Of a stretch of DNA of 64,000 bases, positions 2,057 through 45,520 are shown in pieces. The stretch is from positions 32,001 to 96,000 of the forward strand of contig JBBTCT010000015.1 in assembly GCA_038060895.1 (NCBI GenBank), written 5' to 3'. Both the position numbers and the translations under genes were made by a program. The DNA is from Planctomycetota bacterium. GTDB taxonomy: Bacteria; Planctomycetota; MHYJ01; WSZJ01. The notes beneath the pieces are model-generated. The model had not been told where the DNA came from. It did not search any database and saw only the letters and a list, made by a program, of their open reading frames with translations. The stretch's first letter is position 1. Every line of letters starts with the position of its first letter.

Positions 2057-4017
2057 TAGATGGAAATCGGTTTGGTGATCACTCCAGCCCGCTCCGCGCA
2101 CTTCGCCGCCGACCGGGCAATTCCTGTGGCATCGAGTCCCAGCATCTCCAGCAGCTTCGGCCTGGAACCGTGCTCGATGAAACGGTCCGGAATCCCGATC
2201 CTCGCGATCTTCCGCGCGTCCGCGCCGCACGTCTGCGCCGCTTCAAGCACCGCCGACCCGAACCCTCCGAGCAGCTGGTGGTCTTCCACGGTCAGCACGA
2301 ACGGCTGCTCGCCGCACAGGCGCTGCACGGCATCCTCATCGACCGGCTTCGCGAAGCGCGCGTTGACCACGGCCAGGTCCAGCCCCTTCTCGGCGAGCCG
2401 GCGCGCGGCATCGAGCGCCGGGTACACCATCGCCCCGTACGCCAGGATGGCGCCCTGCTTGCCCTCGCGCACCCACTCCGCTTCGCCCAGGCGGATTTCC
2501 TTCCCGAACAGCACGGTTTCGCCGTCGGGGACGTTGGAGCGCGGGTACCGGAGGGCGACCGAGAGGTCCTGCTTGAGCGCCCACTCCATCATGCGGAACA
2601 ACTCGTGGCCGTCCTTGGGAGCGGCGACGGCGATGTTCGGAAACGGACGGATGTAGGCGATGTCGAAGACGCCGTGGTGCGTGGGGCCGTCGTCGCCGGC
2701 GATGCCGCCGCGGTCGAGGCAGAAGAGGACGGGGTTCCGGTTGAGGCAGACCTCGTGCATGATCTGGTCGAACGCGCGCTGGAGAAACGTCGAGTAGATT
2801 GCGGCGATCGGGCGGTTGCCCGCGAGCGCGAGGCCGCTGGCGAACGCGATGGCGTGCTGTTCGCAGATGCCGGCGTCGTAGTACCGGTCGGGATATTCCT
2901 TCTGGAATTTCGAGAGGCCCGTGCCTTCCGGCATCGCGGCGTTCAGCGCGAGCACGCGCTTGTCCTGCCGCGCGAGCTCGATCGCGCTTTCGGCAAAGAC
3001 CTGCGTCCACGTCTTCGTCGGCGCCGGCGGCTTCGACGGTTCGATCTTTCCGCTGGCCTCCACGGACGCGGACGGCTGGGCCGGATTCGCGAGCTTCAGC
3101 GCCGGCGCCGCGCCGATTTTTGCGGCATGCGCCCGCTGCGAATCCGTCTCCGCCCCCGGATGCCCGTGTCCCTTCTCCGTCAGCACGTGGAGCAGCACCG
3201 GTTTGCGGATGTCCCTGACCTGCCGGAGCGCCTTCTCGACCGCCTCGAGGTCGTGGCCGTCGACGGGGCCGAAGTAGTCGAACCCCAGCTCCTCGAAAAT
3301 GTTTACGCCGTGAATCGTGTGCTTCACGCCGTGCGCCACCGTTTCGAGCACGCGCTCCATCGGCATGCCCACGAACGGCAGCTTCTCAATCAGGCTCTTC
3401 AACTCCTGCTTCGCTTCGCGGTAGATCGGCGCCGCGCGGATCTTGTCGAGGTACTTGGCAAGCGCGCCGACGGTCTGGCTGATCGACCAGCGGTTGTCGT
3501 TGAGGATGACGAGAAGCGGCTTTTTCATGCCGCCGGCGTTGTTGAGGCCTTCGTAAGCGACGCCGCACGTCATCGACCCGTCGCCGACGACGGCGACGAC
3601 CTTCCGTTCGCGGCCCTGGTGCTGGTCGCCCGCGAGCACGCCCAGGGCGGTCGAAACGGCCGTGCCGGCATGGCCGAACATGTAGACGTCCTGGGGGCTC
3701 TCGGCGGGGCATGCGAAGCCGGAGAGTCCTCCGAACTGGCGCAAGGTCCTGAAGCGCTCGCGGCGGCCGGTGACGAGCTTGTGCGGGTAAACCTGGTGGG
3801 AGACGTCCCAGATCAGGCGGTCGTTGGCGAAGTCAAAGACCCTGTGAAGCGCCAGGGTGAGTTCGACGACGCCCAGGGCCGAGCCGAGGTGTCCGCCGGT
3901 CTGGTGGGTGACCAGTTCAATTTCGTCTCGGATCTCCTGGGCGACCTGCTTGAGCTGCTCCAGGGAGAGCGGCTTCAAGTCTGCGGGGGAGTTGATGCCG
4001 TCGAGGATCCGCGCCAT
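2056..4017 (-). CDS. dxs: 1-deoxy-D-xylulose-5-phosphate synthase
   Basis: Motifs GGHLGSALG, WDVSHQVYPHK, TPP motif GDGSM..LNDN, GICEQHA, GDDGPTHHG. Confidence 0.97.
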   Translation of the reverse strand: MARILDGINSPADLKPLSLEQLKQVAQEIRDEIELVTHQTGGHLGSALGVVELTLALHRVFDFANDRLIWDVSHQVYPHKLVTGRRERFRTLRQFGGLSGFACPAESPQDVYMFGHAGTAVSTALGVLAGDQHQGRERKVVAVVGDGSMTCGVAYEGLNNAGGMKKPLLVILNDNRWSISQTVGALAKYLDKIRAAPIYREAKQELKSLIEKLPFVGMPMERVLETVAHGVKHTIHGVNIFEELGFDYFGPVDGHDLEAVEKALRQVRDIRKPVLLHVLTEKGHGHPGAETDSQRAHAAKIGAAPALKLANPAQPSASVEASGKIEPSKPPAPTKTWTQVFAESAIELARQDKRVLALNAAMPEGTGLSKFQKEYPDRYYDAGICEQHAIAFASGLALAGNRPIAAIYSTFLQRAFDQIMHEVCLNRNPVLFCLDRGGIAGDDGPTHHGVFDIAYIRPFPNIAVAAPKDGHELFRMMEWALKQDLSVALRYPRSNVPDGETVLFGKEIRLGEAEWVREGKQGAILAYGAMVYPALDAARRLAEKGLDLAVVNARFAKPVDEDAVQRLCGEQPFVLTVEDHQLLGGFGSAVLEAAQTCGADARKIARIGIPDRFIEHGSRPKLLEMLGLDATGIARSAAKCAERAGVITKPISI

Positions 4018-4208: not shown

Positions 4209-6185
4209 CTGAGTATCCTCGCCAAAGCTCACGAACTGGTCTTCGGGAAGCCGAAAGACCCCACCGATCCGAAGGTCTTCCACCGACTCTCGCTCATCGC
4301 CTTCTTCGCGTGGGTCGGCCTCGGCGCCGACGGACTGTCGTCTTCGGCCTACGGCCCTGAAGAATCCTTCAAGGAACTCTTCAAGGCCAACCACCAGTCC
4401 CTGGCCCTCTTCCTCGCCGCCGCCACTGCCTTCACCGTCTTCATCATTTCGTCCACCTACAACAAGGTCATCGAGGTCTTCCCGACCGGCGGTGGCGGCT
4501 ATCTCGTTGCAACGAAACTCCTCGGCGGCGGCGCAGGCCTGGTCTCAGGCGCTTCGCTCATGGTGGACTACGTCCTGACCGTCGCGATCTCGCTCGCAGC
4601 CGCCAGCAAGGCCATCTTTTCCATTCCGGTCCTGCATCCCTGGGCCCACCTCAGCCTCTGGCTCACGCTCGGATTCCTGGCCGTCCTCACCTACCTGAAC
4701 ATTCGTGGCGTCAAGGAGTCCACCCTCGTCCTCACCCCGATCTTCCTGACATTCCTGCTCACCCACGCCATCGTCATCGGATGGGGAATCTTCGGGCACT
4801 CGAAAGATCTCTCCGACATCGCAGGCGATGCCGCCACCACCGTCAGCAAGGCACGCTCGGAAGGTTCCCTCTGGATCCTCTTCACGGGATTCATGCTCGC
4901 CTACACCATGGGCGCCGGCACGTACACCGGCATCGAAGCGGTCTCGAATTCCATGAACGTCCTTCGTGATCCGAAGGTGGAGACGGGGAAGCGGACCATG
5001 CGCCTGATGGCCTGGTCCCTCGCCATCACGGCCGGAGGCATCCTCATGTGCTACCTCCTCCTGGACGTCAAGCCGAAGGGAGACAAGTCCCTCAACGGCA
5101 TCATGATTGAAGCGGTGGCCGGGACGTGGAACCTCACGCCCGGGTGGTTCGCCACGTTCGTCTTCATCACGCTCTTTTCCGAGGCCGCCCTGTTGATCGC
5201 GGCCGCGCAGGCCGGGTTTCTCGGCGGCCCGGCGGTGCTCTCGAACATGGCTCTGGACTCCTGGGTCCCGCACCGTTTCGCCAACCTCTCGGACCGCCTG
5301 GTGACGATGAACGGTGTCGTTTTGATGGCCGCCGCGGCCGGTGCGCTCATCGTCGGGACGAGGGGCAAGGTTGAAACCCTCGTCATCATGTACTCGATAA
5401 ACGTGTTCATCGTGTTCGTGCTCACGCAGATCGGGATGAGCGTCCACTGGATCAAGGTGCGCCGCCGCGTCAAGGCCTGGTGGCGGAATCTCGCTCTCAA
5501 CACCGTCGGCCTCGTGCTCTGCGCCACCATCCTGCTGTTCACCGTGATCCAGAAGTTCACGCACGGCGGCTACGTCACCGTGATCATCACCCTGGGGCTG
5601 GTGACATTCTGCCTCGTCGTGAAACTCCATTACCGCAAGGTCTCCCGCCTCCTCCGGCGCCTCGACATGGCTTTCAGGGAAATACCGGAAGCGGCCACCG
5701 ATCCCGGACTCGTCAATCCGGGCGAGGACGCGCCCACGGCGGTCCTTTTCGTCGGTTCTTATGGCGGCTTCGGCATCCACACGTTTTTCGCCATTCACAA
5801 GGCCTGGCCGCGCTACTACCAGCGCTTCATTTTTCTTTCTGTCGGCGTCGTCGACACCGCGCACTTCAAGGGAGTCGAAGAAGTCGAAAACCTCGAGCGC
5901 GAGACCGAGAACACGATCCGAAAGTACGTCCGCCTCGCGCGAGGGCAGGGGTGCTACGCCGTCGGTGAGTACAAGATTGGCCCCGACGCCGTCGAGCTGA
6001 TGATGGACATGGCGCGAAAAATGAAGAAGGAGTACCCGCAGGCCGTGTTCTTCAGTGGAAAGCTCGTCTTCCCGACCGAGAACTGGATGACGCGATTCCT
6101 GCACAACCAGACCGCCTACGCCGTGCAGCGGGAAATGCAGTTCGACGGGATGACCATGATCGTGCTGCCGGTAAGGGCGATCTAG
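4209..6185 (+). CDS. APC-superfamily permease, KimA/YdaO-like (probable CUG start)
   Basis: The frame is open 117 codons upstream of the ORF-track ATG and encodes LGADGLSSSAYGPEE and FPTGGGGYLVA. TGIEAVSN lies downstream. SD AAAGGAGG at 4191-4198 precedes CTG at 4209. Confidence 0.85.
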   Translation: MSILAKAHELVFGKPKDPTDPKVFHRLSLIAFFAWVGLGADGLSSSAYGPEESFKELFKANHQSLALFLAAATAFTVFIISSTYNKVIEVFPTGGGGYLVATKLLGGGAGLVSGASLMVDYVLTVAISLAAASKAIFSIPVLHPWAHLSLWLTLGFLAVLTYLNIRGVKESTLVLTPIFLTFLLTHAIVIGWGIFGHSKDLSDIAGDAATTVSKARSEGSLWILFTGFMLAYTMGAGTYTGIEAVSNSMNVLRDPKVETGKRTMRLMAWSLAITAGGILMCYLLLDVKPKGDKSLNGIMIEAVAGTWNLTPGWFATFVFITLFSEAALLIAAAQAGFLGGPAVLSNMALDSWVPHRFANLSDRLVTMNGVVLMAAAAGALIVGTRGKVETLVIMYSINVFIVFVLTQIGMSVHWIKVRRRVKAWWRNLALNTVGLVLCATILLFTVIQKFTHGGYVTVIITLGLVTFCLVVKLHYRKVSRLLRRLDMAFREIPEAATDPGLVNPGEDAPTAVLFVGSYGGFGIHTFFAIHKAWPRYYQRFIFLSVGVVDTAHFKGVEEVENLERETENTIRKYVRLARGQGCYAVGEYKIGPDAVELMMDMARKMKKEYPQAVFFSGKLVFPTENWMTRFLHNQTAYAVQREMQFDGMTMIVLPVRAI

Positions 6186-33356: not shown

Positions 33357-34091
33357 ATGGCCGTTCCCGCCCAGCCACGCGCCCCGATGCTCGACGCCGT
33401 CGGGATCCTGAAGGAAGCCTGGGAACTCTTCACCCGCCAGTGGCAGGCCTGGCTGCTCATCGGGCTCTGTTTCATGCTGATGGCCTTGTGCCTTGCCGTG
33501 ACCTGCATCGGGATCATCCTCATGGGCGCGCTGCACGCCGGCCTGTACGTCGCCGCGTTCAAGCAGCTGCGCGGGCAGACCCCGGAGGTGCGGGACCTGT
33601 TCGAAGGCTTCCAGTGGTTCGGCCCCACGACGCTCCTCATGATCATTTCCGGGTTCTGCGTCTTCCTGGGCATGCTCTGCTGCATCATCCCCGGGCTCGT
33701 CCTTGCCGTCTGGTGGTACTTCGCCCTGCCGCTCTGCGTTTCGCACGGCCTCGGCGCGACGGACGCGATGGCGATGTCCAAGGCGAAAGTGAAGGAGGGA
33801 TTCTGGGACGTCGTAGTCCTGATCCTGATCATCATCGCGGTGAATTTCGTCGCGGGCATGGTTCCCTTCGGCCAGATCCTGGTCGGCCTTCCGATCCAGA
33901 CGCTCATGATCGCCATTGCTCACCGCGACCTGTTCGGCCTCGAGGGGGCTCTTCCCCCGGTCGGTCGCGGGCCGGCGCCTTCAGTCCAGGGCGTGATGCC
34001 GGCGCAGGGAGCGGTCGCGTGTCCGAAGTGCAATGCGCCGAACGTGCCGGGGCACAAGTTCTGCACGGCTTGTGGTGGGCTCATTGCGTAG
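33357..34091 (+). CDS. Integral membrane protein with C-terminal zinc ribbon
   Basis: Several TM segments; CPKCNAPN..KFCTACG. Confidence 0.8.
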   Translation: MAVPAQPRAPMLDAVGILKEAWELFTRQWQAWLLIGLCFMLMALCLAVTCIGIILMGALHAGLYVAAFKQLRGQTPEVRDLFEGFQWFGPTTLLMIISGFCVFLGMLCCIIPGLVLAVWWYFALPLCVSHGLGATDAMAMSKAKVKEGFWDVVVLILIIIAVNFVAGMVPFGQILVGLPIQTLMIAIAHRDLFGLEGALPPVGRGPAPSVQGVMPAQGAVACPKCNAPNVPGHKFCTACGGLIA

Positions 34092-34235
34092 GAAAACGAC
34101 AACAACGAAACGAAAAACGAAAAAGTAAAAACGAAAGACGAAAAGAACGGCCAGGCCGCTCTTGAACATGGCCTGGCCGCTCCTTTCGTTTTTCGTTTTT
34201 ACTTTTTCGTTTTTCGTTTCGTTGTTGTCGTTCTC
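34092..34235. repeat. Long fold-back heptamer array (AAAACGA/TCGTTTT)
   Basis: Arms of about 66 bp (34092-34157, 34170-34235), nearly complementary, with a 12-nt loop. Confidence 0.9.
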
Positions 34236-34274
34236 GTTGCGACGCCCCTCCCGCCGGACTAGACTCATCCGCAC

Positions 34275-34817
34275 ATGCGCCTCTCCATGGAAATCTTCGG
34301 CATCCCCCAGGACCACGTCGACCCCCTCAAGAAGGCCGTCGACGAAGCCTACGCCAAGTTCCTCTACAAGGACGGCAGCGCCAAGGCCAAGACCGTCATC
34401 AAGAAACACGAGGGCACCTGCCCTTTCACGGGCAACCGCTGGATCCACGTCCTCATCGACGGCCTCGAAGCCCTCGAACTCAAGGACGTCTCCCGCTTCC
34501 AGGAATCCGTCTACCGCGCCCACCCCCTTCGTACCGATCCCGTCGTCGCCGACAACATGTACCTCAAGCTCGAACAGGCGGCCGCCGCGGAAGCCGAAGC
34601 GGAGGCGGCGGAAGAGGGCGAGGAAGAACTGGCCTGCTGGGTCTGCTCGCGGGTCGACGGCGAAGAATGCTACGACTACGATTCGAGCGAGGCGTATACG
34701 ATCGAGGTCCGTTTCCACGAGGATGCCAAGGTCCCGCTGTGCAGCGTCTGCCTGCAGCTCTTCCTCTATCACGACGAGTGGGAGGACGAGGATGCGGAAG
34801 AAGGAGAGAGCGAATGA
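34275..34817 (+). CDS. Hypothetical acidic protein with Cys pairs
   Basis: CPFTG, CWVC, CSVC and Glu/Asp-rich tracts. ATGA overlap with the next gene. Confidence 0.7.
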   Translation: MRLSMEIFGIPQDHVDPLKKAVDEAYAKFLYKDGSAKAKTVIKKHEGTCPFTGNRWIHVLIDGLEALELKDVSRFQESVYRAHPLRTDPVVADNMYLKLEQAAAAEAEAEAAEEGEEELACWVCSRVDGEECYDYDSSEAYTIEVRFHEDAKVPLCSVCLQLFLYHDEWEDEDAEEGESE

Positions 34818-35659
34818 AGCGCGCGTGGTGGATCGTTCCGGCGGCGGTTCTGTTGCTGGTTGGGTGCGACATGCGCTCGCCGGCGCAGAAGAAGAAGGAA
34901 GCCGAGGAAGAGGCGAGGCGCAAAGCCGCGGCGAACGCGGGTCCGGTCGTGCGGCCGGAACCACCTGAGGAACCGCACGTGCTGGTCAAGGCGGCGTCCG
35001 GAGGGGCGGAAACGGTGCAGCGGGCGTCGGTGGCCCTGGTCAAGGTCGGCCGCGACGGCGTGATCGAGTGCTCGCGCCTGACGTTCGAGATGGGACAGTT
35101 GCGCAAGACGGAAAAGGGCGGCGCTTCCTCGAGCAGCGGGTGCTGCACCGCGACGGATCCGCCCGAGGTGCGCGCGATGGGCGGGATCTTCGACCAGCTG
35201 CGCGGTTCCGCGTACACGGCCGCTTCGCCGCCGTGCGAGGAGCCCGTCATCCTGGACGGGGACTACAAGGCGAGCTGGCTCCATGCGCGCAAGGTGCTGG
35301 AGACAATGGCCCGCGCGAACATGACGCGGCTATTTTTCGCCACGAGCACGAAGCCGGAGAGCCTGCAGGGGATTCCTGCGAAGCTTCCCGCGAACTGGAA
35401 CGCAGCCGAAGCGATCCCGGCGAAGGCGAAGCGGGTGGACGTGGCCGCGAAAGGGAAGGACCTGCAGATCTCGATCGACGGCGCCGTCTACAAGGACGTT
35501 GCGTCTGCCGTCAGTGCGCTTCAGAAGGCCGGCGTGACGGAGATCGGGATTCATCCTGCGGACTCGAAGACGCCGCTGTGGGCGGTTGTGAAGGGGGTGG
35601 AGATTTCCAATTCGATTGCGCCGGCGGGGCCGGTCCGGTTCGTGATGGTGGACCGCTGA
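34814..35659 (+). CDS. Lipoprotein with ExbD/TolR-like periplasmic repeat(s)
   Basis: Lipobox LVGC. PVILDGDYKASW..VLETMARA...LFFA resembles the ExbD C-domain. Confidence 0.6.
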   Translation: MKRAWWIVPAAVLLLVGCDMRSPAQKKKEAEEEARRKAAANAGPVVRPEPPEEPHVLVKAASGGAETVQRASVALVKVGRDGVIECSRLTFEMGQLRKTEKGGASSSSGCCTATDPPEVRAMGGIFDQLRGSAYTAASPPCEEPVILDGDYKASWLHARKVLETMARANMTRLFFATSTKPESLQGIPAKLPANWNAAEAIPAKAKRVDVAAKGKDLQISIDGAVYKDVASAVSALQKAGVTEIGIHPADSKTPLWAVVKGVEISNSIAPAGPVRFVMVDR

Positions 35660-35669
35660 CGCTCCCTTA

Positions 35670-37850
<2,181 letters not shown>

Positions 37851-37853
37851 CCG

Positions 37854-39344
37854 TCAGCCTGGCTTGCGGGCGGCGACGCCGGCCATCAGCAGCTTGGCGA
37901 TTGCCCACTCGGTGGCGCGTTCGCTTGCGTCGCCCAGTCCCGGGTCCATGGGGCGCGTGCCTCCCAGGACGAGGCGCCGGCCTTCTCCTGCGGCCTGAAG
38001 CGCGATTTCGAGCCCGTCGACGCGGCCGAAAAACGTTCCTTCTTCGGCGCCGGGCAGAGGCACGAGGGGGACCTCGAATGCCCTGGAGACTCGCTCGGAC
38101 AGTTCTTCGACGGTCAGGGAGGGAGTGAGGATGAGTTCGCTGCGGAAGCGTTCGCCGACTCTCTCGACCGGGATGCCGTAGGGAGTCGGATTGGCAGTCG
38201 GGATCGCGCCGGGCTGTTCCATGCGCGGCACCGGGACGGGCGGATAGGACGGCAGGCGGCTCGACACGGGGGAGTCCTCGGCGGCGGCGGGCGCCTGGGA
38301 AGGCGTGCGGCGGGCTTGCGGCGGCGCCGGGGCAGGAGGAGCCGAAGCCGGCTTGCGGGCGGCCGGGCGGTCGGTTGCCGGCCGACGGACGGGCGGCGGC
38401 GCGGCGGGAGCGGGCGTCGCTTCACGAACCCGCAGCGCGGGGTCGGCGTAAACGGGCACGACAAACGTCGCGTTCCCCGCGGCTCCCGGGGCCCACGGGC
38501 CGACTTCGAGTTCCCAGAAGCGCGACGGTTTCCGGAAGCGAGTGGCAAGCGAAGGCGGGGCGGAGATTTCGAGGATGACCTCGACGACGCCACCGACGAT
38601 CTCGGCGTCCTCCGTCCAGCGCCACAATTCGCGCACGGTCACCTGGCCGCCCGCCCGGCCTGCGATCTCGAGGCAACGAAGCGTGGCGCGCATCCGCGGA
38701 CCGTAACCGAGCATCCGGGGTGTTGGGAGGTATCGAGCCTGGAGCGTTCCCCCGGTTGCGAACGGGTAGGTATGGAACTGGAGCCGGCCGCGGCCGCGCA
38801 GCTTGAGCACGACCATGCCGAAGAGGGCCAGCGCGAGTTCGACAGCCGCGGGCGCAAAGAGGAGCCCGGCGAAGAACCGGTTCGTGTGAAGGCCGGCCGT
38901 GTAGAGGATCCAGCCGGCCGGAACCATCGCAGCCAGCGCAATCGGAACCGCGACCAGCCGTTCCCTCACGCGCACGGCAATCCGGTCGCCCACCCCCTCC
39001 GGATCCCAGGGCCACTCCCACTTCCAGGGGCCCACCGGCCTGAAGTGCGCCCCGCGCCCGCGTGTCAGTCCCCGGAAGACTGCCGCGATTCCCTGCGCGA
39101 AGAAGACGGCGCCAAGAAACGCGAGAAAGGCCTGGGCTGCCTGAAGCTCAATTCCAAGAACGAGTTTTCCGGCCAGCAGCGCTTCTCCACGGAAGACCAG
39201 CGCGACGGCGGCGGCCAGGAAGATAGCGCCAGGCAGGAGGTGAACGACGCGCGAGCCCTCCGGTGCCGCTGGAGGCGCGCGATGATAGGTCGCGCCCTGG
39301 TCCGGTGATTCCTTCGCCGCTTGAACGGGCGAATCCTGGCCCAT
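37854..39344 (-). CDS. Hypothetical membrane protein with Pro/Ala-rich linker
   Basis: About 4 TM segments, WKWEWPW, Pro-rich region. TAGAAT lies 6 nt before the ATG. Confidence 0.65.
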   Translation of the reverse strand: MGQDSPVQAAKESPDQGATYHRAPPAAPEGSRVVHLLPGAIFLAAAVALVFRGEALLAGKLVLGIELQAAQAFLAFLGAVFFAQGIAAVFRGLTRGRGAHFRPVGPWKWEWPWDPEGVGDRIAVRVRERLVAVPIALAAMVPAGWILYTAGLHTNRFFAGLLFAPAAVELALALFGMVVLKLRGRGRLQFHTYPFATGGTLQARYLPTPRMLGYGPRMRATLRCLEIAGRAGGQVTVRELWRWTEDAEIVGGVVEVILEISAPPSLATRFRKPSRFWELEVGPWAPGAAGNATFVVPVYADPALRVREATPAPAAPPPVRRPATDRPAARKPASAPPAPAPPQARRTPSQAPAAAEDSPVSSRLPSYPPVPVPRMEQPGAIPTANPTPYGIPVERVGERFRSELILTPSLTVEELSERVSRAFEVPLVPLPGAEEGTFFGRVDGLEIALQAAGEGRRLVLGGTRPMDPGLGDASERATEWAIAKLLMAGVAARKPG

Positions 39345-39430
39345 GCCGGCATTCTACGCTGGCGCGCGCGATCGCAGCGGGCCGATCTCGGCCTACTTGT
39401 GAGGCGGCAACGAATCTGTCTTGACAAGAG

Positions 39431-39462
39431 CGTGAATGATAATCATTCACAGCATGAATGGA
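39431..39462. repeat. Palindromic direct repeat, copy 1 (just past the ATPase stop)
   Basis: CGTGAATGATAATCATTCA-CAGCATGAATGGA. Confidence 0.85.
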
Positions 39463-39464
39463 TT

Positions 39465-40709
39465 TCACAGACCCAGCGCGGTCCCAAGCGGCACCGCCCA
39501 CACCCGTTCCGCGATGCGCTCCAGTTCCTTGCCGTTGTGAAGCAGCAGGCCGAACGGAGCGAGCGCACCGTACTCCGAGAGAAAGGTCTGCACGTGGCGG
39601 GCGTCGTGCAGGGACGGTTTCTGCGACGATTTGATCTCGATCGGAATCACCTTTCCGGACGTCTCAACGACGAAGTCCACTTCTTCACCCGTCGACGTCC
39701 GCCAGTAACACACCGCCGGACGCGGAGTGCACGTCTCTGACCACGCCAGCAGGTCAAGCAACACGAGGTTTTCCAGCAGGAATCCGCCCATCCCGCTTCC
39801 GCGCAACTCGAGCGGGGATTCCACGCCGGCGAGGTGCGCGGCCAGCCCGGTGTCGCACCAGAACAGCCGCGGCGTGCGGATGAGTCGCTTGGTGCGGTTG
39901 ATTGCGTACCCGGGAACCCTGTGGATCAGGCAGGTGGCCTCGAGCAGGTTGAGGTAGCGGTGGACTGTCGGCTGCGGCATTCCGGCGTCGCGGCTGAGGT
40001 CCGTCTGGTTGACCATGGCGCCGGTGCGAAGTGCCGCCATCCGCATGAGCCGGCGGAAGTCCGCAAGGTCGGCCACCGTGGAAATGTCGCGCAGGTCCCG
40101 CTCGAGATAGGTGCGGACGTAGCCGTCGAGCCAGAAGCGGCGGTGCGCGTCGCCGCGAACGAGGGCGGCGCCGGGGAAGCCTCCCCGGAAGAGCCGATTG
40201 GGAAGATCGTCCAGGTGACGCCCCGGTGACCTGAGGCGGCCAGGGTCGGTCAGCAGGCGATCCCACGGGCCCGTCGCTGCGTGCCCCGCAATTTCCGACA
40301 CGGTGAGCGGGTGCAGTTCGAAATAGGCCGCGCGGCCCGCAAGCGACTCGGAGACCGATTTCAGGAGCGCCAGGTTCGCCGAACCCGTGAGAAGGAACCG
40401 TCCGGGCCTGCGACTGCGGTCTACTTCGCGCTTTACCGCGACCAGCACGCCCGGCGAGCGCTGCACTTCGTCCACAACGACAGGCCAGCGTGCCTGGAGA
40501 AGAGCTGCCGGTTCGCGGCGGATGCGATCGAGAGTGTCGTAGTCGTCGAGAGTCAGGTATCGCATGCGGGGCCCAGGGAGCAGATGGTGCACGAGCGTGC
40601 TCTTGCCCGTCTGGCGCGCGCCCGTGACGATGACAACGGGCATGGTCCGCATGGCGGCGCGGACGGCAGGGGCAATGTGGCGGGGAAGGAGTTTTGTGCC
40701 GTTACTCAT
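39465..40709 (-). CDS. AAA_14 + DUF4143-type ATPase (AAA, wHTH, C-terminal REase-like EIK motif)
   Basis: TGARQTGKST, VDEVQR, LTGSA, ESLAGR, GGFP, TYLERD, DTGL, LENLV, YWR..EVDFV..IEIK. Confidence 0.92.
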   Translation of the reverse strand: MSNGTKLLPRHIAPAVRAAMRTMPVVIVTGARQTGKSTLVHHLLPGPRMRYLTLDDYDTLDRIRREPAALLQARWPVVVDEVQRSPGVLVAVKREVDRSRRPGRFLLTGSANLALLKSVSESLAGRAAYFELHPLTVSEIAGHAATGPWDRLLTDPGRLRSPGRHLDDLPNRLFRGGFPGAALVRGDAHRRFWLDGYVRTYLERDLRDISTVADLADFRRLMRMAALRTGAMVNQTDLSRDAGMPQPTVHRYLNLLEATCLIHRVPGYAINRTKRLIRTPRLFWCDTGLAAHLAGVESPLELRGSGMGGFLLENLVLLDLLAWSETCTPRPAVCYWRTSTGEEVDFVVETSGKVIPIEIKSSQKPSLHDARHVQTFLSEYGALAPFGLLLHNGKELERIAERVWAVPLGTALGL

Positions 40710-40711
40710 GA

Positions 40712-40743
40712 CGTGAATGATAATCATTCATACGATGAATGAA
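40712..40743. repeat. Palindromic direct repeat, copy 2 (just before the ATPase start)
   Basis: CGTGAATGATAATCATTCA-TACGATGAATGAA. The 19-bp core is identical to copy 1; 28/32 overall. Confidence 0.85.
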
Positions 40744-40848
40744 CAGACAAATCGCGGACTGACGTCGCGGCTGTCGGCAAGACGGCCTCCTGGTCGTTCG
40801 ATCGCTTCATTGCCTCCACTATCCGATTTCCGGATCATGCCCGCCCCC

Positions 40849-42846
40849 ATGAGCCTCTCCCTTTCTTCACTGAACGCCGCGCAACGCAAGGCGGCCGAGA
40901 CGCTGGAGGGACCGGTGCTCGTGCTCGCCGGAGCCGGGACGGGGAAGACGAAGGTGCTTACGACGCGGCTGGCGCTCCTCCTCTCGAAGGGCCACAAGCC
41001 CGCTTCGCTCCTTGCCGTGACTTTTACGAACAAGGCGGCGCGCGAGATGAGGGCGCGGGCGGTGAAGCTGGCGGGGCCGCCGGCGAAGGAAGTCTGGCTC
41101 TCGACGTTTCACTCGCTGTGTGCGCGGATTCTGCGGAAGGACATCGAGGTCCTCGGGTGGCGGAGGGACTTCGCCATCTACGACGACTCGGACCAGGAGT
41201 CGGTCGTACGTTCCGTCCTCAAGGAATTGCGCGTCCCCGGCGTGCAGGCGACGGCGGATGTCGTGAAGTGGCGGATCGGTGCGGCGAAGAACCGGGGGTG
41301 GGGCGCGGCGGAGATGGCGAAGGAGTCCGGGGACGACGTGGACATCGTCGCGGCGCGCGCGTTCGAAAAGTACCAGGCGGGGTTGAAGTCGCGCAACGCG
41401 CTGGACTTCGACGACCTGCTGTCGCTGACGGTACGGCTTTTCCGCGAACACCCGGGCGTCCTGGAAAAGTATCGCAAGCAGTTCCGCTACCTCATGGTCG
41501 ACGAGTATCAGGACACCAACGCGGTGCAGTACGAGATCGTGCAGTCGCTCGCCGGGAAGCACCGGAACCTCTTCGTCGTTGGCGACGACGACCAGTCGAT
41601 CTACGGGTGGCGCGGGGCGGATCACGCGCACATCCTCCACTTCGAGGCGGACTTCCCGGGGGCGACGGTCGTGCGGCTCGAGCAGAACTACCGTTCGACC
41701 GAGGCGATCCTCGAGGCGGCCAACGAGTTGATCCGGCACAACGCGGCGCGGCATCCCAAGACGCTCTTCTCGAAGCTTGGCGCCGGCGCCCCGGTGCGCA
41801 CGGTGCTGCTTTACGACGAACGTGCGGAAGCGCTCTGGGTCGCGGATCAAATAAAAACATCGGCGCGCCGCCGCTCCGCCTTCGCGGTCCTTTTCCGCAC
41901 AAACGCCGAGACCCGCCCCTTCGAGGAACAGCTGCGCCTCGCCCGCATCCCCTACAGCGTCGTCGGCGGCCAGCGCTTCTACGACCGCCGGGAAGTCCGC
42001 GACGTCCTCGCCTACCTCCGCGTCGCTTCCAACCCGCACGACGACGCCGCGCTCGCGCGCATCGCAAACGTCCCGCCGCGCGGCATCGGCGAAACTTCGA
42101 TGGAGAAGCTCGACACCTTTGCGGCGTCGAAAGGCCTCCCGCTCTTCGACGCGTTCCGCCGTGCCGACGAGGCCGGCCTTTCGCCGGGAACCGCCGAGTC
42201 CGCGAAACGGTTCGCGGCGAAGGTGGAGGCCTGGCGGGGAAAAATCGGAAAGGACGCGGCCCGTGGCGCGCGCGACATGGTCGAGGACCTGGATCTCTTC
42301 GGCGAGTTGCGCCGCGAGACGGAAAACACGGAATCCGCGGAAGCGCGCGTCAATTCGATCGAGAGCGTTCTCGACGACCTCTCGGCGCACGCGCGCGGCG
42401 GCGGCGACCTGCGCGGTTACCTTGAGAAGGTCGCGCTCATGGACAAGGAGGAGCCGGACGACGAACAGAAGGAGGCGGTCACGCTTCTGACCGCCCACGC
42501 GGCCAAAGGGCTGGAATTCCCCGTCGTTTTCGTCGTCGGGATGACCGACGGCATCTTCCCTCACCGGCGCTCGACGGCGGACGAGAAAGGACTCGAGGAG
42601 GAGCGGCGGTTGCTCTATGTCGCGATGACGCGTGCAAAAGAAGAGCTCGTCCTGACGCGTCCCGAGCACCGCACCAGCCGCGGAAAAACCGGGAAGTCGC
42701 TTGCGTCTCGCTTTCTCGTCGAACTCCCCGGCCATGTCCAGAGGGAAGCGCCCGGCAAGCGCGAACTCACCTCGGACGAGACGGCTGCACTGGACGCGAA
42801 GATCCAGGCGATCCTTGCGGGCGGCGAGAGGCCGCCCACTACTTGA
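40849..42846 (+). CDS. UvrD/Rep/PcrA family DNA helicase
   Basis: LAGAGTGKT, TFTNKAA, VDEYQD, VGDDDQSIYGWRGA, QNYRS, HAAKGLEF, EERRLLYVAMTRA. Confidence 0.96.
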   Translation: MSLSLSSLNAAQRKAAETLEGPVLVLAGAGTGKTKVLTTRLALLLSKGHKPASLLAVTFTNKAAREMRARAVKLAGPPAKEVWLSTFHSLCARILRKDIEVLGWRRDFAIYDDSDQESVVRSVLKELRVPGVQATADVVKWRIGAAKNRGWGAAEMAKESGDDVDIVAARAFEKYQAGLKSRNALDFDDLLSLTVRLFREHPGVLEKYRKQFRYLMVDEYQDTNAVQYEIVQSLAGKHRNLFVVGDDDQSIYGWRGADHAHILHFEADFPGATVVRLEQNYRSTEAILEAANELIRHNAARHPKTLFSKLGAGAPVRTVLLYDERAEALWVADQIKTSARRRSAFAVLFRTNAETRPFEEQLRLARIPYSVVGGQRFYDRREVRDVLAYLRVASNPHDDAALARIANVPPRGIGETSMEKLDTFAASKGLPLFDAFRRADEAGLSPGTAESAKRFAAKVEAWRGKIGKDAARGARDMVEDLDLFGELRRETENTESAEARVNSIESVLDDLSAHARGGGDLRGYLEKVALMDKEEPDDEQKEAVTLLTAHAAKGLEFPVVFVVGMTDGIFPHRRSTADEKGLEEERRLLYVAMTRAKEELVLTRPEHRTSRGKTGKSLASRFLVELPGHVQREAPGKRELTSDETAALDAKIQAILAGGERPPTT

Positions 42847-42898
42847 TCGGCATTTCCGCGGTCAACCGGTAGAATCCGCGCCCTGCCAGAACTTGGGA

Positions 42899-44071
42899 AT
42901 GCGCGTCATGGCCAGGAATGCCAGCTCACTTCTGCTCGTCTTCGCGATCCGTCGCGGCCTTGTCAGCGCGGAAGCGGCGCTTCGCATCGCCGACGACTGC
43001 GATTCAGGTGGCGATTTGCGCCGCCTGCTGCTCGAGACAGGCCGGCTGGACGAACCGCAGCTCAAGGCCCTGGAAGCAGAGGCCGAAGCCTGGCGCGCGG
43101 TGCGCACGCAGAATCCCGTGGAACTCGAAGCCGCGAACCGGTCCGACGTCACGGTGCCGATGCTGCCCTCGGATCCGTCAGAGGCTCCACTTCCGGCGGT
43201 TCGGCCTGCTTTCCGCTACGTTCTCGGGGAGGAACTGGGAAGCGGCGGCGTGGGGCGGGTCGTCGAGGCGATAGACCAGGACTTTGGCCGGCGGGTGGCG
43301 CTCAAGATCCTGAAGCCCGGGGCGGGGCGCGCTGCGGTCGAGCGGTTGCAGACCGAGGCGCGGATCACGGGCCAGCTGGAGCACCCGAACATCGTGCCCG
43401 TGCATGAAATCGGGACGCTTCCGCGGACGAACGAAGTGTTCTTCTCGATGAAGCGCATAGTCGGGCGGGACATGCGGCAGGTGATCCGCGACGGTACCTG
43501 GAGGCCGCGCCGGCTGGTGGAGGCGTTTCGCGACGTGTGCCGGGCCATTGCGTACGCGCACGCGAAGGGGATCATCCACCGCGATCTCAAGCCGGCGAAC
43601 GTGATGCTGGGGGATTTCGGGGAAGTGCTGGTCGTGGACTGGGGTCTTGCCCGGGTGGTGGGGCCGCGCGTCCTGACCGGGGAACCCGGTGAACTCGTCG
43701 CCGAGCCTCGGCGCCTGGCGAAGACGCCCTCGGGGCTGGTGCGCGGGACGCCGAGTTACATGTCGCCCGAGCAGGCGGCGGGGAACACGGAACTGATCGA
43801 CGAGCGGAGCGACGTCTATGGCCTGGGCGCAACCCTCTACGAAATCCTGTCCGGCCGGGCGCCCTTCGAGAGTCCGGCGCTCGCTGAAACGATCAAGCTC
43901 GTCCTTGCGGGCAATCCGCCTCCACCGGCGAAATTCCGCAAGACCGCCCCGGAACTGGACCGTATCTGCCTGAAGGCGATGGCCCTGAAGCGGGAAGACC
44001 GGTACGGCTCGGTGGTGGAGATGGGCCAGGATCTCGAGGAGTTCCTGCAGGGACCGGCCGAGCTACTTTGA
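42899..44071 (+). CDS. Hanks-type Ser/Thr protein kinase
   Basis: GSGGVG, VALK, HRDLKPAN, DWGLA, GTPSYMSPEQ. Confidence 0.93.
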   Translation: MRVMARNASSLLLVFAIRRGLVSAEAALRIADDCDSGGDLRRLLLETGRLDEPQLKALEAEAEAWRAVRTQNPVELEAANRSDVTVPMLPSDPSEAPLPAVRPAFRYVLGEELGSGGVGRVVEAIDQDFGRRVALKILKPGAGRAAVERLQTEARITGQLEHPNIVPVHEIGTLPRTNEVFFSMKRIVGRDMRQVIRDGTWRPRRLVEAFRDVCRAIAYAHAKGIIHRDLKPANVMLGDFGEVLVVDWGLARVVGPRVLTGEPGELVAEPRRLAKTPSGLVRGTPSYMSPEQAAGNTELIDERSDVYGLGATLYEILSGRAPFESPALAETIKLVLAGNPPPPAKFRKTAPELDRICLKAMALKREDRYGSVVEMGQDLEEFLQGPAELL

Positions 44072-45520
44072 TTCGAACCACCAGCTCAACCGGAATTTAG
44101 CCGCGCGCGGCCAGTCGCTCCTGCCGCCGTCTTCTCCCTCGCGCGCCGCCAGCGCCGCATAGAGCGGCTTCGCCTCGTCTCTCTTCCCGGACTGCTCGAG
44201 CGCCCAGGCGTCGCGCATCGCCTTCTCGCGGTCCCGTTCGCGGGCGACCGGCGGGTAGTCGTCGGTGAACCTCGCGACGGTCTCGGCGTACTGTTTCTTC
44301 TGCGCCCACGGCCACTTCGCGTACGCCTCGAGGAGCGCCTTCTGGCGTCTGAGCTGGAACGGGCTCGGCACCGCCTCCGTTTTCGCGGCGTCCGCGAGCA
44401 GCTTGTCGAGGCGCGGCAGCTCCGCCTGGGCGAATTTCTGCAGCTCGGTGCGAAGGGCAAGGACGGCTTTCTTGTCGGCGAGCGTGACTTTGCGATCGAG
44501 CTCGATCTCGGCTATGCGCGCGACGGCGTCGGGCCAGCGGTCCTGCGCGAGAAGCGCCGTGACTTCCTTCACGTACTTGTCTTCGCTCTTCGAGAGCACG
44601 AGAGGCTCGGGCTGCGGTGCCGCGACCCCGCTGGCGGGCGGATAGGGGAGCGAGCCGGGACCGCCGAGGTCGTTGATGGCGTCGCGCGTGATCTGGAGGC
44701 AGCGGAAATTGACGTCATGCCCCATTTTCGGGATCTCGTGGTAGAGCACCGGCAGGCCCCAGTTCGCCAGCACGTTCGCGTAGTGACGGACTGCGGGAAG
44801 CACTTCGAAATTCCCCGCCTTCTCCGTCTCCAGCTCGCCGACGGTGCAGAACGTCGGGATCGGGGGCATCGTTTCCTTCTTTCCGGCGCCTCCGCTCGAG
44901 TAGAGGAAGAGGGCGCGGAACGGAAACGTCGCCGGGTCCTCTTTCCACCAGTCCACTGCCCACCCGCTCGACCACGCCGTTCCCCACGAAAAACCGCCGA
45001 CGAACACGCGATCCGGGTCCACCGGCTGCTCCCTCATCGTTTTCTCGAGCAGCCACCGGCATCCCTTGATGACGACATCCGGTTTCGCGAGCGTCGGCAG
45101 CCCCATCTTTCCCGTCCCGTCCGCCTGCAGCTCCTGGTACTGCACCCCGATCACGATCACCGGGTCGCGCTCGGTCGTGATCTGCGCCAGCACGCCGACG
45201 CGACCCTTGCCGCGATCGCCGTTCCCGTGAAACACGAACATCAGCGCGTACCGTTTCGACTTGTCGAGGTTCTTCGGAAGCGACAGGTACCCCGTCATCT
45301 TCTCGCACCCCGGTTCCTCGATGTTCAGCTCGGAGAAGTCCGAGGGCCCCTTTACGACCGGGTTCGCTTCGCCGCCGCCCAGCCGGGATTGGGGGAGGAA
45401 CTTTGCGGCGTCCGTCGCGGCGCGATCGCGAACGCGCGCGCCGGCTTCCGGCGCAGGATCCTCCGCGAAAGAGGCGAGGGCGGACAGAAGCGCTGCAAGG
45501 GCGGGGAACGGTGCACGCAT
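44063..45520 (-). CDS. Secreted alpha/beta-hydrolase-fold protein
   Basis: Signal peptide; FHGNG, DPDRVFVGGFSWG (GxSxG), MGHD; helical C-terminus. Confidence 0.75.
   Translation of the reverse strand: MRAPFPALAALLSALASFAEDPAPEAGARVRDRAATDAAKFLPQSRLGGGEANPVVKGPSDFSELNIEEPGCEKMTGYLSLPKNLDKSKRYALMFVFHGNGDRGKGRVGVLAQITTERDPVIVIGVQYQELQADGTGKMGLPTLAKPDVVIKGCRWLLEKTMREQPVDPDRVFVGGFSWGTAWSSGWAVDWWKEDPATFPFRALFLYSSGGAGKKETMPPIPTFCTVGELETEKAGNFEVLPAVRHYANVLANWGLPVLYHEIPKMGHDVNFRCLQITRDAINDLGGPGSLPYPPASGVAAPQPEPLVLSKSEDKYVKEVTALLAQDRWPDAVARIAEIELDRKVTLADKKAVLALRTELQKFAQAELPRLDKLLADAAKTEAVPSPFQLRRQKALLEAYAKWPWAQKKQYAETVARFTDDYPPVARERDREKAMRDAWALEQSGKRDEAKPLYAALAAREGEDGGRSDWPRAAKFRLSWWFESK

Follow-up and report, generated by a model that had tools for sequence, protein, structure and literature searches.

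In this study we focus on a palindromic box that stands on both sides of a single gene in the DNA of a Planctomycetota bacterium (contig JBBTCT010000015.1, positions 32,001 to 96,000; this whole stretch of 64,000 nucleotides (nt) is called the window below). The gene encodes an ATPase-nuclease of the PDC-S01 type, a candidate anti-phage defence, and the two boxes are probably two copies of its cognate operator, the upstream copy repressing the promoter and the downstream copy offering a second docking site for control. The second box, behind the stop codon, is a newly found feature and a conserved peculiarity of this one genus. We describe here the anatomy of the boxes, their uniqueness in the genome, their co-inheritance with the gene, their conservation and their genomic contexts, and we propose a binder and a role for the second copy. 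The elements of the locus, in window coordinates, are the following.

39465-40709, minus strand: ATPase-nuclease gene, 414 amino acids (aa), with an AAA+ P-loop, a winged helix-turn-helix (wHTH) at about residues 215-280 and a C-terminal PD-(D/E)XK-type DUF4143 domain.
40712-40743, minus strand: upstream array, the putative operator, made of a 17-base-pair (bp) palindrome (40714-40730) and a half-site (40735-40743) and overlapping the putative core promoter.
40717-40722, minus strand: -10-like hexamer TATCAT within the upstream box, 7 nt ahead of the start codon (40707-40709), a leaderless-type layout.
39431-39465, minus strand: downstream copy of the array, made of a palindrome (39433-39449) and the half-site AATCCATTCAT (gene orientation).

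The 19-mer CGTGAATGATAATCATTCA occurs exactly twice in the window, at 39431-39449 and 40712-40730, in direct orientation, while 100 shuffles gave no match by chance. The direct repeat is identical at 27/30 nt with a spacing of 1281 bp (28/32 over the 32-nt extension, counted by hand). Its 17-nt core, TGAATGAT-A-ATCATTCA, reads as a perfect palindrome of the form 8-1-8. Beyond each of the two copies, at a distance of 5 nt, comes a third half-site (ATGAATG on the plus strand). Repeat, palindromic core, third half-site and the TATCAT hexamer 7 nt before the ATG had all been reported in a first-pass annotation of this DNA, and direct reading bears them out. That annotation also placed the boxes at the ATG and after the stop codon; the placement stands, but the strand had to be corrected to minus, so that 40712-40730 is the upstream copy, 2 nt ahead of the ATG at 40707-40709, and 39431-39449 the downstream copy, 15 nt past the stop codon (39465-39467), immediately after which the half-site of the downstream array begins. 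An alternative in-frame ATG at 40725-40727, inside the upstream box, would give a protein of 420 aa. The palindrome appears to overlap the core promoter and start of its own gene, as is typical of an autoregulatory self-operator.

The upstream box is most likely a portable self-operator of a subfamily of these ATPase genes, because it travels with the gene across phyla and because distant paralogues have palindromes of their own at the same place. A scan for the exact 17-mer in one genome per prokaryotic species returned at least 121 stretches, and 80 loci were analysed. An ATPase homologue starts at the box in 58 of the 80 loci, among the matches listed (tblastn), with 44-54% identity outside the clade and 86-90% at three in-clade loci. 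According to the record titles, box and ATPase occur together in Planctomycetota, Acidobacteriota, Gemmatimonadota, Chloroflexota, Nitrospirota, Myxococcota, Bacteroidota and others. In the full-length homologues (n = 54) the exact box starts 9-27 nt ahead of aligned residue 1, save at L055 and L071, where it lies further upstream (-62 and -59) and degenerate tandem copies occupy the usual position. The start codon, ATG or GTG, is found exactly 21 nt past the first base of the box in 44 of these 54, and the reading frame begins within the box itself in the remaining 10. The consensus of 41 loci, ATTCAc-N3-gTGAATGATTATCATTCAc-N3-ATGAAt, comprises four half-sites in 11-bp phase and shows the same layout of TATCAT in the box and start codon behind it; a TTG-type -35 element often lies 18 nt ahead of TATCAT (sequences read by eye), and several loci carry three or four boxes with a 22-bp period. 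Moreover, the box is present, with 0-3 mismatches, at each of five more homologues drawn from 401 sampled genomes of the phylum to which this bacterium belongs.

The same position is occupied by a palindrome with arms of at least 6 in 13 of 17 more distant homologues (32-53% identical). One of them (L007) has the same box, two (L008 and L009) have one-base variants, and the palindromes of the others are quite different. Co-inheritance and subfamily specificity of this kind would be expected of a self-operator. The remaining 22 of the 80 exact-box loci lack the gene: some belong to AT-rich genomes, and about eight are GC-rich orphans in unrelated intergenic DNA. ATPase coding remnants are present beside some orphan boxes (L061, L114/L129, L130). 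In the five orphan genomes checked, the orphan was each time the sole copy of the box, and no homologue above 39% identity was found in four of the five. Among viral contigs with the exact box (17 loci), the ATPase was found in none.

Several other palindromic arrangements were met in these loci. In the viral contigs L287, L292 and L294 (~1985-2045) the exact box is embedded in a longer series of AT-rich palindromes that resemble it, and no homologue of the ATPase is present within 2 kb. In two Acidobacteriota (L093 and L123, ~2480-2540) the orphan array is extended to a palindrome of ~55 bp that is near-identical between both and lies at different loci. Its neighbours are MBL/HepT-like genes in one genome and a gene for a DinB-type polymerase in the second, and a cognate ATPase is absent from both. 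The same-box homologue of a Nitrospirales genome (L101) is enclosed by a perfect 29-nt inverted repeat (2422-2450 and 3812-3840), ~100 nt before its start and 78 nt after its stop.

The first-pass assignment to AAA_14 and DUF4143 is confirmed by Pfam (E 1.6e-24 and 5.2e-43, respectively), with a weak HTH match at residues 232-258, and PADLOC returned the candidate system PDC-S01 (model PDLC04790, E 6.5e-121 over residues 6-409). Residues G35, K36, T38, E81, D345, E358 and K360 are invariant in 52 homologues and D80 is nearly so; the P-loop, Walker B and D...ExK nuclease residues are intact. No match to the ATPase was found in the PDB by sequence. The AF2 model of the ATPase has a mean pLDDT of 91.9, and Foldseek matched it to Orc1/Cdc6 (2qby), to RFC subunits and to the archaeal AAA+ proteins with a wHTH 2qen and 2fna, and its nuclease half to Cdn1/Card1. 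A homodimer prediction with two copies scored 0.00, which weighs neither for nor against binding. In the group that shares the box, the predicted recognition helix and wing read lpQPTVHRyLnLLE...NRTKRL, and the alignment shows stepwise changes in members with variant boxes. A reading of both boxes by the protein's own wHTH fits the data, because the box travels with the gene across phyla and the paralogues have private palindromes, and we infer that the protein may bind its own operator through this domain and repress its own gene.

In the whole assembly (5,418,064 bp, 65.8% GC, 86.5% complete) the 17-mer with up to three mismatches and the 13-bp core with up to one are found only at the two places flanking the ATPase gene. 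This uniqueness bears on the earlier suggestion that the boxes are ordinary host Fur-family boxes controlling two adjacent promoters. Like a Fur box, the element is an AT-rich 9-1-9 palindrome; the extended 19-mer agrees with the 19-bp Fur consensus of E. coli at 15/19 positions, and the genome encodes one Fur-family protein. Unlike a Fur box, it has no regulon in this genome and is tied to one gene family across many phyla and in several genomic contexts. The Fur reading can hardly hold and was rejected because the scan of the genome for the motif gave no other such sites; just one further site lies within four mismatches of the Fur consensus. Furthermore, in G005 and G006, two genomes of the same genus, the genes on either side of the downstream box converge, leaving no promoter there to control, and the promoter region of the sole Fur-family gene (G000:C1 457444-457803; L301) has a different palindrome, TGAGACT-C-AGTCTCA, ~200 nt upstream of the gene and ~20 nt after a TTGACA, which may be that regulator's own site. 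The adjacent sigma-54 activator was also rejected as the binder; the box stays with the ATPase gene in contexts without that activator.

The downstream copy belongs to one clade. Orthologues of the ATPase at 84-90% identity were found in genomes of the genus (G003, G005 and G006, beside the present genome, G000) and in a metagenome contig (L199, 87%). Two boxes at a distance of 1280-1282 bp, each identical at 16-17/17 positions, are present in all five in-clade cassettes, and all five have TATCAT 7 nt from the ATG or GTG and a T (gene orientation) at the centre of the upstream box. Outside the clade the downstream box was found in none of 56 same-box relatives (51 loci and five more at up to four mismatches, and L007 at up to three) within 200 nt after the stop codon, or 1.5 kb for L007; nor was a second copy of their own palindrome found behind the gene in four homologues with a variant box or another palindrome (L008-L011). 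In the phylum sample, the box with up to one mismatch is present in 14 of the 401 genomes and is doubled only in the three genomes of this genus, while a reversed-pattern control matched 1 genome. Paired boxes are thus seen in the five in-clade cassettes, and the same-box relatives outside the genus have the upstream box alone.

Fourfold-degenerate sites are identical at 47-57% between the ATPase genes and at 51-72% between the neighbouring uvrD genes. The cassettes are thus old, since these sites are near saturation, and unconstrained DNA should be scrambled. Indeed, similarity ends within a few bases outside each box. The linkers differ between the two box copies of one genome, and in G005 and G006 the centre base differs too, so that the downstream copies are apparently kept by selection and not by gene conversion. 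The present genome and L199, and only these, share an extra short inverted repeat (GTCTGTGA ... TCA(A)GACAGA) that encloses the downstream box (window 39405-39480; L199:2900-2990); the two cassettes have in this way ~20 nt beyond the box in common despite their different contexts.

The gene and its two boxes behave as a discrete unit, as the first-pass annotation had supposed: the five cassettes lie in three contexts, and similarity ends at the boxes.

G000 and G003: uvrD, cassette, membrane-like gene.
G005: uvrD locus without the membrane-like gene; the downstream box adjoins a sigma-54 activator gene in convergent orientation.
G006: cassette flanked by a cupin gene on one side and, on the other, by a DUF1579 gene in convergent orientation.
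L199: cassette between a GDSL-lipase gene with a small open reading frame (ORF) and a kinase gene.

The flanks of the G006 cassette (cupin gene on the left, DUF1579 gene on the right) are on different contigs in relatives, and a flanking gene of L199 has its orthologue at G000:C9:261 kb, where synteny ends; neither of these two contexts yielded an empty site for comparison. The uvrD identities group G003, G004 and G001 together, G000 with G002, then G005 and then G006, and from this grouping the cassette at the uvrD locus is likely ancestral, with G001, G002 and probably G004 representing losses. G002, the closest to G000 by uvrD (90%), has a 105-bp spacer without any box. G001 has a spacer of 218 bp between its uvrD-like and membrane-protein genes, with one array, a box with two mismatches and no ATPase gene; a relative whose empty site keeps one box, which had been predicted, was thus found at the same locus. 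In G004 the uvrD-like gene is 97% identical to that of G003 and the adjoining 480 bp share nothing with it, which means loss or rearrangement, probably loss. One loss therefore left exactly one box and another removed both. The single box of G001 may stem from recombination of one box with the other or from a deletion in which one array survived, two origins that local alignments did not tell apart. G001 is both the sole relative having a box without the gene and the sole one whose box has two mismatches, a natural experiment in which the box has begun to decay where the gene is absent, which lends indirect support to binding of the box by the gene's product. Between the uvrD-like gene and the cassette, G003 (L046:2239-2508) and G005 (L045, ending at 6002) have a conserved small ORF on the cassette strand (89 aa in G003, no Pfam family) that ends ~25-30 nt before the upstream box and is absent in G000 and G001.

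Taken as a whole, the mechanism that we propose would run as follows. The upstream palindrome would lie inside a self-contained, probably leaderless promoter, with a -35-like TTG, TATCAT in the box and, 7 nt further on, the start codon. The wHTH of the protein is what most likely binds this box; with half-sites spaced at 11 bp and boxes at 22 bp, the protein would sit there as one dimer or as several dimers in phase, and would in this way shut off its own gene. The downstream array would be a duplicate placed directly after the stop codon, in this genus-level clade only, and kept by selection; its most likely role is to offer that protein another place to dock, from which it could aid repression by looping the 1.28-kb gene or could act as a roadblock to transcription leaving or entering the gene. 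As a side effect, the direct repeats would allow clean loss of the gene with one box left behind.

Several points weigh against this operator reading. The covariation between HTH and box is qualitative and comprises few independent changes, and a sigma-70 consensus scan under a stricter rule gave no match at the ATPase promoter. Outside the clade the gene thrives with one box (0/56 with a second), so that the second is not needed for basic function. The centre base of the downstream box is T in three cassettes and A in two, and the gene that follows this box is co-directional in G000, G003 and L199 and convergent in G005 and G006; because neighbour orientation and centre base vary in this way, one promoter-type role does not suit the downstream box throughout. 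As to defence, the available text of one preprint reports a PDC-S01 member, tested in E. coli, that was not among the four protective systems (bioRxiv 10.1101/2024.09.26.614923). Finally, the five cassettes in three contexts, similar only from box to box, and the G001 uvrD locus with one box and no gene fit a role in recombination equally well.

Such a role is the core of another explanation, in which the boxes are the ends of a mobile cassette that has no recombinase: recombination between the boxes would release a circle, which would re-enter by a single crossover of the Campbell type at an orphan operator that an earlier copy had left, cuts made by the box-binding nuclease may assist, and the downstream box would be kept for mobility and not for regulation. 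We consider this unlikely. Orphan boxes do exist in other phyla, as sole copies in the five genomes checked and, in four of these, without a homologue above 39% identity, and the left arm of the array is better kept downstream than upstream in three of the five cassettes, as a circle junction predicts. However, divergence at fourfold sites equals that of uvrD, so no recent movement is visible; the unit of gene and upstream box has spread across phyla without a second box; the loss in G002 removed both boxes and did not use them; and a catalytic mechanism for this protein is not known. Contigs of four public runs aligned to 38900-41300 contained no box-to-box joint or circle junction, although contigs drop rare forms; those from a second study run across each box without a single difference, and RNA-library contigs cover parts of the ATPase gene, which is no proof of transcription. 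That the boxes might be host target sequence duplicated on insertion, as the first-pass annotation had allowed, does not hold, because the upstream box is found in many phyla as the promoter-operator that belongs to the gene family itself. A screen of 125 family members for bracketing repeats brought up four distant ones that are bracketed by 29-72-bp direct duplicates of host sequence, which favours mobility.

L208: 49-bp direct repeat that duplicates the last codons and stop codon of the upstream gene (one of NadC-like, PBP-like or HtpX-like; C-termini read by eye).
L224: 53-bp direct repeat that likewise duplicates the 3' end and stop codon of the upstream host gene.
L211: 29-bp direct repeat that likewise duplicates the 3' end and stop codon of the upstream host gene; the genes duplicated in L208, L224 and L211 are NadC-like, PBP-like and HtpX-like.
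L231: ~72-bp repeats at 141-211 and 1536-1608, which are two near-identical tRNA-Glu(UUC) genes on the opposite strand to the distant DUF4143 ATPase gene between them.

By count, bracketing repeats are present in 7/106 members against 2/106 and 4/106 in shifted-window controls taken within the same loci, a weak enrichment that barely exceeds these controls, and the argument is therefore built on how the single cases are laid out and not on their number. A bolder form of this explanation, which we hold to be distinctly unlikely, is that of a minimal mobile gene without recombinase, made up of the ATPase-nuclease and its operator, whose protein recognises both ends and whose circle exits and re-enters at orphan operators elsewhere. 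If true, a candidate defence gene that ranks fourth in abundance would use its operator as an attachment site as well.

The downstream box could also be a functionless relic of a tandem duplication or of a deleted second gene copy; in G005, ATGAATGGATT stands behind this box and resembles the first codons of another gene copy, and the ATPase coding remnants beside the orphan boxes L061, L114/L129 and L130 point the same way. A relic would have decayed, with neutral sites near saturation and flanks that cannot be aligned, yet all five downstream boxes remain at 16-17/17, and the geneless box of G001 has begun to decay; we therefore hold a relic to be very improbable. Still less credible, and only faintly so, is an action of the boxes as RNA or single-stranded DNA hairpins that would sequester the start codon on the 5' side and form a terminator or a stabilising stem on the 3' side. 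The box does fold into a 7-8-bp stem, with z-scores of -2.3 (downstream) and -1.7 (upstream) for 76-nt stretches, but the upstream box precedes the transcript start if TATCAT is the -10 element, and no T-run follows the stem: a search for intrinsic terminators (GC-rich stem and T-run) scored 0 terminator-like sites in 39250-40900. Neither were compensatory changes seen or an Rfam family matched, and the strict identity that includes the AT-rich centre, together with the half-sites in 11-bp phase, is typical of protein-DNA recognition. We thus keep the two cognate operators as the probable reading of this locus.

The neighbourhood of the cassette in the window is made of the following genes.

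37854-39344, minus strand: ORF of 496 aa, no Pfam family, membrane-like from sequence reading only.
40849-42846, divergent from the ATPase gene: UvrD-type helicase gene.
35670-37850: sigma-54 activator gene.

As the first-pass annotation had stated, no recombinase is adjacent: Pfam matched no recombinase family in the eight neighbouring ORFs scanned (33981-45520). The signs of a transposon or integrase island were not seen either; the unit consists of a single gene, with no transposase or integrase Pfam match nearby, and no tRNA genes were found at two other in-clade contexts (L044 and L199). The membrane-like gene at 37854-39344 has a TAGAAT (window 39345-39365, minus strand) 7-8 nt before its ATG, conserved in four genomes (at the same place in G001, G002 and G003), and looks leaderless as well.

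PDC-S01 counts ~39,000 systems and is the fourth most common candidate defence system in bacteria and archaea, according to the available part of a recent survey (PMC12988326). In the portion of the literature accessible under the names PDC-S01, DUF4143 and COG1373, we found no operator, ligand, function or DNA target for these genes. A 19-bp site that tracks one subfamily across phyla offers a direct handle for binding, structural and regulation work. The genus-specific second copy provides a natural test of simultaneous action on two distant sites by looping. It also allows a test of flanking repeats as the cause of the well-known patchiness of such genes. For annotation there is a warning as well, since a near-perfect Fur-like palindrome need not be a Fur site.

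Among known systems, the controller (C) proteins of type II restriction-modification systems are small stand-alone HTH proteins that read C-boxes. As there, a portable defence unit here has its own palindromic operator on a leaderless-type promoter, putatively read by a protein that the unit itself encodes; in contrast, the HTH lies here within an ATPase-nuclease of 414 aa, and C-boxes are not known to recur behind the gene. Auxiliary operators and repression loops are found in the lac (O1-O2), gal (OE-OI) and deo systems, where a second operator copy also lies at a distance, in or behind the regulated gene. The present distance of 1281 bp is larger and spans the whole gene, and looping is here only a proposal. 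Repetitive extragenic palindromic (REP) sequences occur in hundreds of copies per genome and flank RAYT genes, which encode an HUH transposase. The likeness is that copies of a palindrome stand on both sides of a gene whose product recognises them, putatively so in the present case, whereas two copies and a different enzyme are found here.

The archaeal Orc1/Cdc6 proteins with their origin recognition boxes combine AAA+ and wHTH in the same manner (Foldseek match 2qby) and have inverted-repeat sites beside their own gene. The relationship is one of fold similarity only: no sign of an origin is seen here, and a PD-(D/E)XK nuclease domain has been added. A parallel to the flanking repeats is the insertion with long target duplication described, in the text available to us, for restriction-modification units (Furuta, Abe, Kobayashi 2010, PMC2853133). 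Such insertions share with the present cassette a defence-type unit without a mobility gene, flanking direct repeats and one repeat copy at the empty locus of a relative. The repeat reported here (27/30) is at or below the 30-bp threshold given in that part of the paper, and it is the cassette's own operator and not host target DNA. Distant members of the ATPase family show the classical form of such insertions as it is described there.

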